The notes under the pieces: model-generated
What the model saw: the letters and a program-made list of their open reading frames with translations, nothing else
Database searches by the model: none
Told to the model about the DNA's origin: nothing
Part shown: positions 15,764 to 33,196 of the stretch, piece after piece
Numbering within the stretch: the first letter of the stretch is position 1
How the letters are laid out: the number at the start of each line of letters is the position of its first letter
Translations under genes and position numbers: made by a program
DNA from: Escherichia coli
GTDB taxonomy: Bacteria; Pseudomonadota; Gammaproteobacteria; Enterobacterales; Enterobacteriaceae
Length of the DNA stretch: 64,000 nt
Reading direction: 5' to 3' (one strand)
NCBI RefSeq assembly: GCF_024502345.1
Contig: NZ_JALDNN010000001.1

Positions 15764-16429
15764 TTAACTCGCCTGCAAAGCGTTGATTTCGGATTTATCT
15801 GCCAGTCTTTTCAACAGCATATTGAGTAATACGCCATACATTGGCAGGAAGAAAACGATACTGATTAACACTTTGAAACAGTAATCGACCAGCGCGATTT
15901 CCATCCAGTGTTCAGCCATAAAGGCATCCGGGCTACGCCAGAAGGCAATGAAGAAAAAGGCCAGCGTGTCGCTGACGTTACCGAACAGTGTGGACGCTGT
16001 CGGTGCCAGCCACCAGCGGCGACTCTGACGCAGGCGGTTAAAAACGTGCACGTCGAGGATCTGTCCCAGCGCGTAGGCCATGAAACTGGCGGTGGCGATA
16101 CGGGCGACAAACAGGTTGAAGTGGGCGAGTGCGCCGAATCCCTGCCATGAACCCATATAGAATAGCGACGAGATGACGTAGGAGATCAGCAATGCCGGGA
16201 TCATCACCGCAAAGATGATACGACGGGCCAGCGGTGCGCCAAAAATACGTACGGTCAGGTCGGTAGCGAGAAAGATAAACGGAAAGCTAAACGCGCCCCA
16301 GGTGGTATGGAAACCAAAAATGGAGACGGGAAGCTGAACCAGATAGTTACTGGAGGTGATCACCAGAAGATGAAATAACGATAACCAGAACAACGCCTTA
16401 TAGCGTTGCGTTTGCGAGAAAACGTTCAT
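15764..16429 (-). CDS. yhhQ: Queuosine-precursor transporter YhhQ
   Basis: 221 aa polytopic membrane protein; matches K-12 YhhQ. Confidence 0.9.
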   Translation of the reverse strand: MNVFSQTQRYKALFWLSLFHLLVITSSNYLVQLPVSIFGFHTTWGAFSFPFIFLATDLTVRIFGAPLARRIIFAVMIPALLISYVISSLFYMGSWQGFGALAHFNLFVARIATASFMAYALGQILDVHVFNRLRQSRRWWLAPTASTLFGNVSDTLAFFFIAFWRSPDAFMAEHWMEIALVDYCFKVLISIVFFLPMYGVLLNMLLKRLADKSEINALQAS

Positions 16430-16649
16430 ATTGTACCTTTTTGATTAACCATTGGGGTGAGGGAACCCAATACGTACGACACGTCTGTTACCTTAACATA
16501 ATAACGTGCTTACCCTTTTTTCGAGCCGCCGCATGATACTGCTTTACGTTGACAATGCAATGGTTAATTTTCACGCAATCGTTAACCTGGTTTGCTTACG
16601 GACTCACAGGGCGTAAACTAGCGCCGTTTTTTTATGTGATGAGAAGAAA

Positions 16650-16895
16650 ATGACCGATCTCTTTTCCAGCCCTGACCACACACTCGACGCACTTGGCCTG
16701 CGCTGCCCGGAACCAGTCATGATGGTGCGCAAAACAGTGCGCAATATGCAGCCAGGTGAAACGTTGCTGATTATTGCTGACGATCCGGCGACGACCCGCG
16801 ATATTCCTGGGTTTTGTACCTTTATGGAACACGAACTGGTTGCTAAAGAGACGGATGGACTGCCTTATCGTTATTTGATTCGTAAAGGCGGTTGA
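16650..16895 (+). CDS. tusA: Sulfur carrier protein TusA
   Basis: 81 aa; CPxP motif (LRCPEPVM); matches K-12 TusA. Confidence 0.95.
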
Positions 16896-16896
16896 T

Positions 16897-16990
16897 GGGG
16901 AAAGATTGGCTTCGATGCCGCCTTTTCCCCTCACCCTAACCCTCTCCCCAGAGGAGCGAGGGGACCGATCGCGCTCAATGTTGCGATCGG
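16897..16990. repeat. Structured intergenic region between convergent tusA and zntA: nested inverted repeats, probably a bidirectional terminator or small repeat element
   Basis: GGGGAAAG...CTTTTCCCC; CCCTCTCCCC...GAGGGG; perfect 9-bp stem ACCGATCGC-N9-GCGATCGGT at 16964-16990. Confidence 0.4.
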
Positions 16991-16996
16991 TTTGCC

Positions 16997-19195
16997 TTAT
17001 CTCCTGCGCAACAATCTTAACGCATTCGCTGTCACCAGCACCGTCGCACCCGTATCTGCCAGCACCGCCAGCCATAGTCCGGTCATTCCTAACAGCGTGG
17101 TGACGAGGAAGATCCCTTTCAGCCCCAGCGCAATAGTGATGTTCTGGCGGATATTGGCGTGAGTGGCGCGTGCCAGTTCGATCATTTGCACCAGACCGCG
17201 CAGGTGGTTATGGGTTAATGCTGCGTCGGCGGTTTCCAGCGCCACGTCTGTGCCGCTGCCCATTGCAATCCCGATGGCGGCAGCTTTCATCGCTGGCGCG
17301 TCGTTAATACCGTCACCGACCATCGCCAGCGGCGCATGTTGATTCAGCTCGGTCACCGCTTTGACTTTATCTTCCGGCAACAGGCCCGCTTTAAACTCCA
17401 GCCCCAGCTCCCCGGCAATTGCCGCCGCTGCGCGTGGATTATCGCCGGTGAGGATCACCCCTTTGACGCCCAGCGCGTTCAGTTCACTGATGGCAGTTGC
17501 AGCATCGGCGCGCAGGGTATCCTGTAACGCAATGACACCAAGCACGTCATCGTTACGTACTACCAGCACTACCGTTTGCCCGGCGCTTTCCAGTTCGTTA
17601 ATTAAACCAGCAAATGCATCAGCGGGATGTTTCCCGGCAGCGCAAATCAATACGCGCTCACCGTTAACCTGCGCTTCAATGCCAGACCCGACCAGCGCCC
17701 GCTGTGATTCGGCGGCGGGAATGGCGAGTGCAGCAACCTGTGCTTCGCGCACGATGGCCTGCGCCAGTGGATGCGTCGCGCCTTGCTCGACCGCCGCCGC
17801 CAGTGTCAGCAGTTCAGATTCACTAATACCCGTTGCCGGATGAATCGCGGTAACGCGCGGTTTACCGACGGTCAGCGTACCGGTTTTATCAAACGCCACC
17901 TGTGTAACACGACCTAGCTGCTCCAGCGCCGCACCGCCTTTAATTAACGCCCCACGACGTGCCGCTGCTGCCAGCCCGGAGGTAATCGCCGCGGGCGTGG
18001 AGATAACTAACGCACACGGGCAGCCAATCAGCAGCAGCGTCAGCCCTTTATAAATCCACTCTTGCCAGCTGGCGGCAAATAGCAGCGGCGGCACCAGCGT
18101 TACCAGCAGGGCGACGGCCATAATTGCTGGCGTATAAATACGGCTGAAACGGTCGATAAACCGCTCAATGGGGGCGCGGCGCTCTTCGGCTTCTTCGATC
18201 AGTTTCAGAATCCGGTCAATGGCGCTGGCACCCGGTTCTGACAGCACTTCCAGCGTTACCAGACGGTCTACGCTGGTGGCTCCTGCAGGAACTTTATCGC
18301 CCGTCGCGCGCTCCACCGGAATGGATTCTCCGGTCAGGGCGCTTTCATCAAAACTGGCAAACGGTGAGAGCAGTTTACCGTCGGCAGGCAAACGCCCACC
18401 TGCGGCGACTTCAATCACATCGCCAGGCCGCAGGCTGTTAATCGCCACCTCTTCCCGCTCACCGTTACGCAGGCGCGTGGCGGTTTCTGGTTTCAGCGCC
18501 ATTAACGCGCTAACGCCCTGACGCGCGCGGCTGGCGGCCCAGCCTTCCAGTCGTTCACCAATCAAAAACAGCAGCAACACCATCGCAGCTTCAGCCGTTG
18601 CGCCAATAAACAGTGCACCAATAGCGGCTACGCTCATTAAGGTTTCAATGGCGAAGTAGCTGCCGGATTTGATCAGCCGTAATGCCTGACGAGCAATCGG
18701 GTACAGCCCAACCAGCGTGGTCGCGATAAACGCCAGTTGCCCAAACGGATGATTAAATTGCTCCAGACCCCAGCTGATTGCCATCATCACGATTAGCGTA
18801 ATCAGCGGCAGATTCTCTTTCAGGCGCGATGCTTGTGGCTCGTCGGCGGCCTGCTCATCGCGCAGGGAATAGCCCGCTTTTTGCACCGCAGATTCAACCT
18901 GGGCACGGATGTCATTGTCGGCATCGACCACCAGTTTTTCGGTGGCGAACAGTACCTGCACCTGATTCACACCTGCAAGCTGGCGCACGGCATTTTCTAC
19001 CTTGCGCGCACAGGCGGCGCAGTCCATGCCGCTGACTTTCCAGCTATAGCGGGTGCCGGAGACGTTTTCAGAGAGCGTTGGCGAGCTGGAACATGCGCCG
19101 TCGCAGCAACAGTCGTTGGCGTTCTGTACCGTGGTTAGCGGTTTGAACGCAGCAAATTGAGGGGCTTTCTTGCCGTGATTGTCAGGAGTCGACAT
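16997..19195 (-). CDS. zntA: Zn/Cd/Pb-translocating P-type ATPase ZntA
   Basis: 732 aa; N-terminal CCCDGAC and GMDCAAC metal-binding motifs, CPC, DKTGT phosphorylation motif. Confidence 0.96.
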   Translation of the reverse strand: MSTPDNHGKKAPQFAAFKPLTTVQNANDCCCDGACSSSPTLSENVSGTRYSWKVSGMDCAACARKVENAVRQLAGVNQVQVLFATEKLVVDADNDIRAQVESAVQKAGYSLRDEQAADEPQASRLKENLPLITLIVMMAISWGLEQFNHPFGQLAFIATTLVGLYPIARQALRLIKSGSYFAIETLMSVAAIGALFIGATAEAAMVLLLFLIGERLEGWAASRARQGVSALMALKPETATRLRNGEREEVAINSLRPGDVIEVAAGGRLPADGKLLSPFASFDESALTGESIPVERATGDKVPAGATSVDRLVTLEVLSEPGASAIDRILKLIEEAEERRAPIERFIDRFSRIYTPAIMAVALLVTLVPPLLFAASWQEWIYKGLTLLLIGCPCALVISTPAAITSGLAAAARRGALIKGGAALEQLGRVTQVAFDKTGTLTVGKPRVTAIHPATGISESELLTLAAAVEQGATHPLAQAIVREAQVAALAIPAAESQRALVGSGIEAQVNGERVLICAAGKHPADAFAGLINELESAGQTVVLVVRNDDVLGVIALQDTLRADAATAISELNALGVKGVILTGDNPRAAAAIAGELGLEFKAGLLPEDKVKAVTELNQHAPLAMVGDGINDAPAMKAAAIGIAMGSGTDVALETADAALTHNHLRGLVQMIELARATHANIRQNITIALGLKGIFLVTTLLGMTGLWLAVLADTGATVLVTANALRLLRRR

Positions 19196-27151: not shown

Positions 27152-27254
<103 letters not shown>

Positions 27255-33096: not shown

Positions 33097-33196
33097 ATGA
33101 AACGATGAGTAATCTGTAGAGTTTGATTCAGACCTTCTATTTTTCCGCTTATCCGTGCCCCATCTCCCATTTTCCCTCACCCACGCCGTCACCGCC

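Follow-up and report, generated by a model that had tools for sequence, protein, structure and literature searches.

The tusA-zntA gap and its dyads

The window, by which is meant the whole 64-kb stretch of DNA that was analysed, comes from Escherichia coli and carries tusA and zntA with a gap of 101 nt between them. The list of open reading frames and the RefSeq gene names place the two genes in convergent orientation, as claimed in the original prediction. On the MG1655 chromosome, zntA ends at 3,608,649 and tusA at 3,608,751, which makes this the same gap as that of the catalogued element TMECO no. 16. The features of the gap and its neighbors, including those of the repeat named BoxC that is described below, are the following.

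16650-16895, plus strand: tusA coding sequence, 81 aa, with the stop codon TGA at 16893-16895; annotated by RefSeq as 'sulfurtransferase TusA' under the BLAST matches
16997-19195, minus strand: zntA coding sequence, 732 aa, with the stop codon TAA as the complement of 16997-16999
16897-16904, no strand assigned: left arm of dyad 1a, GGGGAAAG, locus-specific and paired with the outer BoxC block
16900-16987, minus strand: full extent of BoxC similarity (5' tail, three-block core and 3' flank), from nhmmer and the alignment of 21 copies
16927-16962, minus strand: BoxC core of 36 nt, CCCTCGCTCC-TCT-GGGGAGAGGG-TTA-GGGTGAGGGG (Holder 2015 Table 1; Kaplan 2016 table)
16953-16962, minus strand: C-block of the core
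16940-16949, minus strand: G-block 1 of the core
16937-16939, minus strand: TTA loop of the core
16927-16936, minus strand: G-block 2 of the core
16963-16982, minus strand: BoxC 5' tail, AACATTGAGCGCGATCGGTC, from the tail consensus in 21 copies and with high nhmmer posterior probability
16983-16991, no strand assigned: right arm of hairpin 3, GCGATCGGT, locus-specific, adjoining the zntA stop codon and present once per genome

The three dyads reported for the gap were all recovered at their positions by an inverted-repeat search. The first consists of two overlapping parts. Dyad 1a pairs GGGGAAA with TTTCCCC (16897-16903 and 16924-16930) over a perfect 7 bp, and dyad 1b pairs AAAGGCGG with CCGCCTTT (16884-16891 and 16918-16925) over a perfect 8 bp, with the last tusA codons as its left arm. 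The left arm of dyad 1a is strain-variable, reading AGGGGCTG in K-12 and GGGGGAAG in ST131. The second dyad is the C-rich pair, in which CCCTCTCCCC (16940-16949) faces GGAGCGAGGG (16953-16962) with Watson-Crick pairs at 8 of 10 positions on the plus strand; an alternative pairing joins TCCCCTC to GAGGGGA (16926-16932 and 16958-16964). The third, referred to here as hairpin 3, is a perfect 9-bp stem of ACCGATCGC and GCGATCGGT (16964-16972 and 16983-16991) with a loop of 10 nt. Directly after its right arm the plus strand reads TTGCCTTATCT, a weak U-tract for tusA transcripts. Each arm of hairpin 3 also holds a GATC, the site of Dam methylation, within a CGATCG palindrome (16967-16970 and 16985-16988, 18 bp apart). 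Nested is not quite an apt term for these repeats, as the hairpins stand next to one another and each of the outer two borrows one arm from the central repeat.

Folding of both strands, a check proposed with the original prediction, was carried out on the 131 nt from 16880 to 17010 with dinucleotide shuffles as the background. The plus strand folds at -57.4 kcal/mol (z = -3.82; 1 of 200 shuffles as good) and the minus strand at -54.2 kcal/mol (z = -3.09; 0 of 200). Because both strands are more stable than their shuffles, the dyad structure in the gap is real and exceeds chance. For hairpin 3 alone the energies are -20.1 kcal/mol (plus strand, z = -3.6) and -16.9 kcal/mol (minus strand, z = -3.2), and for the BoxC core -24.4 kcal/mol (minus strand) and -17.5 kcal/mol (plus strand).

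A separate terminator-like hairpin, GGCGTAAACTAGCGCC followed by GTTTTTTTAT, lies on the plus strand at 16610-16635, in the divergent region between yhhQ and tusA and 15-25 nt before the tusA start codon. An upstream transcript could end there, or the hairpin could act as a leader or attenuator.

Identity of the repeat

BoxC is a GC-rich short repeat that is scattered intergenically in E. coli and its relatives and has no established function in the literature. Bergler et al. 1992 were the first to note it, downstream of envM/fabI, and the original GenBank entry for E. coli K-12 annotates 33 copies of 51-59 bp. Hoyne et al. 2000 came upon the repeat again and described it as a 'potential intrastrand triplex' (PIT) element, for which Holder et al. 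2015 (NAR 43:10126) later introduced the name TMECO. An nhmmer profile was made from 19 K-12 BoxC copies, with the tusA-zntA locus excluded, and searched against the 64-kb window. The sole hit of the profile is on the minus strand, from 16987 to 16900 (E = 6.4e-21, 69.3 bits), and because the hit spans these positions, BoxC fills ∼88 of the 101 intergenic bases. Alignment to other BoxC copies, whose repeat unit is ∼56 bp long, was tried as a means of overturning this assignment, and the window copy does align. The suggestion that the gap might hold a small intergenic repeat element was thus correct, the C-rich motif being BoxC.

The aligned set comprises 21 anchored BoxC copies, among them 15 other K-12 loci, taken from the Holder coordinates, and one from another strain. 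Conservation in these copies extends beyond the 36-nt core by ∼20 nt on the 5' side of the G-strand (AAAaa.G.GC.CGgtCgGTC) and by ∼13 nt on the 3' side (GAAcAGgcCnGCA). The window copy has the same conserved tail and flank as, for example, the copy between fabI and ycjD (L009); it differs from the other copies in that its ends are complementary to both flanks, and nothing essential differs. Each of the 15 other K-12 loci retrieved is intergenic, like the window copy. A BLAST search of the gap against 5426 complete E. coli genomes, which bears on whether the C-rich motif recurs elsewhere in the genome, returned 61,719 places spread over 5425 of them, the median genome having 12, and the extra places cover the central 39 nt of the gap.

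The cluster of hairpins is very probably one BoxC copy and not three independent signals, with a core that most likely has no locus-specific regulatory role. The middle dyad is BoxC's own C-block/G-block hairpin. In hairpin 3, the BoxC 5' tail supplies the left arm (16964-16972) and the loop (16973-16982) and pairs with a locus-specific 9-mer beside the zntA stop, only the right arm being local. In dyad 1, the right arm (16918-16930) is the complement of the outer G-block together with the BoxC 3' flank, and the left arm is the tusA stop region. Dyads 1 and 3 therefore exist because the sequences that flank the repeat complement its two ends.

Hairpin 3 was also considered as a general feature of BoxC and rejected. 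When the longest stem beside the C-block was compared with that in shuffled upstream sequence across the 21 copies, the tail stem was significant in the window copy alone (9 bp, p = 0.003), the others having stems of 3-6 bp with p = 0.05-1.0. The 39-nt segment that holds hairpin 3 is typically found at one place in a genome (the median), and 4570 of the 5426 genomes have it in full.

Dyad 1 might be what is left of a second, inverted BoxC that was truncated, such as the five inverted pairs of K-12 contain; the sequence is suggestive, although the support for such an origin is uneven. The 52 nt after the core were aligned with the spacers of inverted pairs. None of 500 shuffles aligned as well with the spacer of L019 and 3 of 500 with that of L020; the match to the L018 spacer is weak (78 of 500 shuffles as good), and there is no alignment with that of L022. 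Part of this signal is the ordinary BoxC 3' flank. A different arrangement is seen in the yjdP-phnP gap of K-12 (L014), where a type-A BoxC and a truncated type-B-like copy, CACCCCAATGGGGAGAGGGAGAAAAC, stand tail-to-tail; the five inverted pairs of Holder 2015 are joined G-end-to-G-end.

No other copy of BoxC or of the C-rich motif was found in the 64-kb window. Lone GGGTGAGGG 9-mers, each equal to a single BoxC G-block, lie at 16455-16463 (plus strand) and 33174-33182 (minus strand) with no other repeat features nearby. Their number is at chance level, as the 10-mer with one mismatch allowed gives 4 matches against 2.3 expected. Two open reading frames run through the repeat, one of 65 aa at 16906-17103 (plus strand) and one of 147 aa at 16632-17075 (minus strand), with peptides such as PFPLTLTLSPEERGD. 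Both are of the spurious type that BoxC copies can yield in automatic annotation.

The element and this exact locus are already known under the names BoxC, PIT, TMECO no. 16, and HPGQ no. 40, and the finding is an ordinary one. TMECO no. 16 is listed in Holder 2015 Table 1 as type A mm at MG1655 3,608,684-3,608,719. HPGQ no. 40 is a member of the HPG1 G-quadruplex family of Kaplan et al. 2016 (NAR 44:9083), where its entry reads zntA >>> 48 nt, midpoint 3,608,708, 32 nt <<< tusA. The window copy has the locus of TMECO no. 16, its position 35 nt after the zntA stop, its type A, the TTA second loop, and the G.A mismatch in the stem, and the tusA-zntA locus shows local variability as the authors of TMECO describe.

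The core in the window differs from that of K-12 by one base, GGAGCG in place of GGGGCG, with A instead of G at 16955 on the plus strand. Read as CCCTCGCTC against the CCCTCGCCC of TMECO no. 16, this is a single C-to-T change in the C-block. Because of this substitution, the strict TMECO pattern CCCTCNCCC-N3-6-GGGNGAGGG-N3-GGGNGAGGG, searched as a regular expression, fails on both window strands and passes on the K-12 orthologue. The window copy therefore counts as an orthologue of TMECO no. 16 that carries a mutation, and it does not qualify as a strict TMECO. The type A signature GGGAGAGGG-TTA-GGGTGAGGG is present at 16928-16948 on the minus strand with both G-blocks intact. The HPG1 motif GGGG-AGA-GGG-TTA-GGG-TGA-GGGG is also intact, with four G-tracts, the TTA second loop, and a C-rich region ∼3 nt upstream. 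The 43-nt core segment with the window variant is matched exactly in about half of all complete E. coli genomes, on a count of 2725 among 5266 records (≥99% identity over 43 nt).

REP/BIME elements are likewise short, structured intergenic repeats that favor the 3' ends of genes, and they occupy the same gap in Citrobacter and in long E. coli alleles. They belong to a different sequence family, and BoxC is without a known binding protein or transposase. In a pattern search, the REP consensus GCC(G/T)GATG.CG(G/A)CG... was absent from the gap of the window, where the sole REP-like match lies at 27154.

Alleles and history of the gap

The gap is polymorphic in E. coli. The short form with an intact hairpin 3 is present in 4570 of 5426 genomes (84%), and ∼11% of genomes have only the left arm and loop of the hairpin. 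Longer alleles with REP elements and an open reading frame of 102 aa are found in E. albertii and in ∼11-16% of E. coli, some of them with a decayed BoxC or none. Examples are given below by added length.

Alleles L003 and L016, +167 bp: three REPs after a mutated BoxC
Allele L004, +384 bp: one REP and the 102-aa reading frame; BoxC without its outer block
Allele L005, +454 bp: REPs and the reading frame; BoxC core absent and tail kept

Outgroups were sampled by a TusA-based scan with one genome per species. In E. albertii the gap contains a degenerate BoxC, then ACCGATCGC..17 nt..GCAATCGGT, a REP, and the same 102-aa reading frame, which the GTDB representative of E. coli also carries in its gap. 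A Pseudocitrobacter genome has a full type-A BoxC and a 7-bp version of the hairpin 3 stem, and variants of the right arm of hairpin 3 are seen both there and in E. albertii. REPs fill the tusA-zntA gap in Citrobacter species, and many genera have a gap of 0-50 nt with one simple hairpin.

The 102-aa reading frame encodes a hydrophobic hypothetical protein, MDYLIPVCLGLLGL... (WP_000385059.1 / WP_000385056.1). It occurs at 740-1048 of L004 and 811-1119 of L005, both on the plus strand, and also in L023 and L024; it is conserved, has its own hairpin terminator, and is present in a minority of E. coli and in E. albertii, but deleted from the allele in the window. A Pfam search of the protein gave no family. 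Several Enterobacter species (L025, L026, L028, and L030), E. soli (L027), and L085 have type-B BoxC or half hairpins just after the tusA stop. The half hairpin, CCCTCTCCC-ACA-GGGAGAGGG, is the sole content of the 38-nt tusA-zntA gap in E. soli. As they are found there in several Enterobacter species, BoxC-type repeats occur at the 3' end of tusA in more than one genus.

Parsimony suggests that the compact form in the window is a deletion derivative of a longer allele. A point against this is that the direction from long to short depends on parsimony and a small set of outgroups, two at the level of Escherichia and one distant genus. Three events may have been involved. A large deletion would have removed the sequence between CGGTTTG and TTATYTCC; a 7-nt slippage between two TTGC repeats would have shortened the loop from 17 to 10 nt; and an A-to-G change would have turned a stem with 8 of 9 pairs into a perfect 9-bp stem. 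Slippage and one substitution thus probably made the perfect stem of hairpin 3. Among short alleles the 9-bp stem is near-invariant (4918 of 5150 matches at ≥99% identity), which could mean selection for function or simply recent common ancestry.

Possible roles and significance

On the most likely reading, the BoxC core would be a passenger repeat. REPs stabilise upstream mRNA. By analogy, stacked hairpins in the shared 3' UTR may block 3'-to-5' exonucleases and so set the half-lives of tusA mRNA, zntA mRNA, or both. Such a role as an RNA stability element is possible but rather unlikely. Stable folds would be transcribed within either 3' UTR, REPs hold the same position in Citrobacter and in long E. 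coli alleles, and hairpin 3 hardly varies among short alleles. On the other hand, the alleles differ in ways that weaken pairing: position 16955 may hold an A, the dyad 1a arm reads AGGGGCTG in K-12, and L003 and L016 have cores that have decayed. That the arm of dyad 1a and the core vary in this manner in E. coli argues against strong structural selection on both, and the tail hairpin is not a feature of the BoxC family.

Action at the level of DNA is doubtful as well. Under this proposal (Holder 2015; Kaplan 2016), the G-rich strand would form an intrastrand triplex or switch between G-quadruplex and hairpin, stall polymerases, and leave the locus prone to deletion and rearrangement. The motif does have three matching blocks and four G-tracts, and the isolated G-strand folds as a G-quadruplex at -12.6 kcal/mol in ViennaRNA. 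Holder 2015 demonstrated the triplex in vitro for oligonucleotides of the TMECO consensus, reported TMECO loci to be more variable than control sites, and linked the motif statistically to local sequence variability. The allele series at tusA-zntA, with at least five structural alleles in which BoxC is intact, truncated, or lost, fits that picture, although the long alleles also carry REPs, which alone could explain the variability. The same study found no triplex footprint in vivo by DMS, and the duplex wins when the complementary strand is present. In the window, moreover, the C-block has a second imperfect position and the copy fails the strict triplex pattern. The hairpin at -24.4 kcal/mol outcompetes the G-quadruplex in ViennaRNA once the C-block is present. 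For HPGQ no. 40, the regulatory switch of the HPG1 family has only been proposed, and in silico the hairpin with the C-block is far more stable than the quadruplex. An RNA G-quadruplex in the zntA 3' UTR was considered separately and rejected, as the hairpin wins in context.

The original prediction favored a bidirectional terminator, that is, an intrinsic terminator that stops both tusA and zntA in the gap. This is improbable. The genes are convergent and 101 nt apart, stable hairpins form on both strands, and in other genera the same gap holds a single hairpin or REP. Among the 10 single type-A copies of BoxC that were retrieved, 6 have convergent genes on their two sides, as do 6 of 16 HPG1 members (Kaplan 2016). 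Nevertheless, the minus strand, which is that of zntA, has no U-tract after any of the three hairpins, and on the plus strand only hairpin 3 has a tail, UUUGCCUU, which is weak. A scan of 16400-17400 for a GC-rich stem, a loop of 3-8 nt, and then at least 5 U in 8 calls no site in the gap; hairpin 3 lies outside this consensus, its loop being 10 nt long and its plus-strand tail having U at 4 of the first 8 positions. Hairpin 3 resembles a Rho-independent terminator in its GC-rich, perfect 9-bp stem followed by UUUGCCUUAUCU on the plus strand. It differs in the length of the loop, in the interrupted U-tract, in the lack of any such tract on the other strand, and in having no mapped 3' end.

Mapped transcript ends, the experimental check proposed for a terminator, were looked for in published tables. 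The complete curated Term-seq table of Adams 2021 calls no 3' end at MG1655 3,6085xx-3,6087xx and never names tusA, with the proviso that weak expression of tusA and zntA could hide ends, and the TERMITe supplements contain no entries for the tusA-zntA gap. According to Holder 2015, the work of Hoyne & Maher 2002 on these PIT/BoxC elements revealed neither promoter nor terminator activity, and polymerase was not blocked in vivo.

For tusA, what the structure leaves is a smaller role. Hairpin 3 with its weak U-tract would provide a leaky intrinsic stop or a block to 3' exonucleases, and it is plausible, if somewhat less than evenly so, that it serves tusA mRNA at most as such a leaky stop or as a 3' protective stem. 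Transcripts of zntA, with no intrinsic terminator in the gap, would either read into the hairpins and antisense to tusA or be stopped by Rho; zntA probably relies on Rho or on read-through.

A more elaborate history combines these roles with the changes in the gap. After the loss of the REPs, the 102-aa reading frame, and its terminator, selection might have reshaped the flanks of BoxC, through the 7-nt slippage and the A-to-G change that let both ends of the repeat pair with their neighbors, into a compact three-hairpin 3'-UTR module that replaces the REPs as a terminator or exonuclease barrier for both mRNAs. We regard this as quite unlikely; if true, it would be a case of a co-opted 'junk' repeat. 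An independent small RNA or small protein encoded in the gap is very improbable. No family in Rfam 15 reaches its gathering threshold; the best match, to Hrs13 (16914-16997, plus strand, 19.7 bits, E = 0.046), is weak, lies far under the 52 bits at which that family is gathered, and owes its score to the terminator-like stem. The interval 16400-17400 has no promoter-like site, and the reading frames of 65 aa (plus strand) and 147 aa (minus strand) that cross the gap are antisense to tusA or zntA and are translations of the repeat.

As a discovery, the BoxC copy between tusA and zntA carries little weight, both element and locus being in the literature under four names. It does provide a caution for scans of this kind, as dense dyad symmetry in the 3' gaps of enterobacterial genes is often one dispersed repeat and not a set of stacked signals. 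The locus may also be a possible test bed for the function of BoxC, as its alleles form a natural series in which BoxC is intact, point-mutated, truncated, or absent, and in which REPs and the small open reading frame may or may not accompany it.
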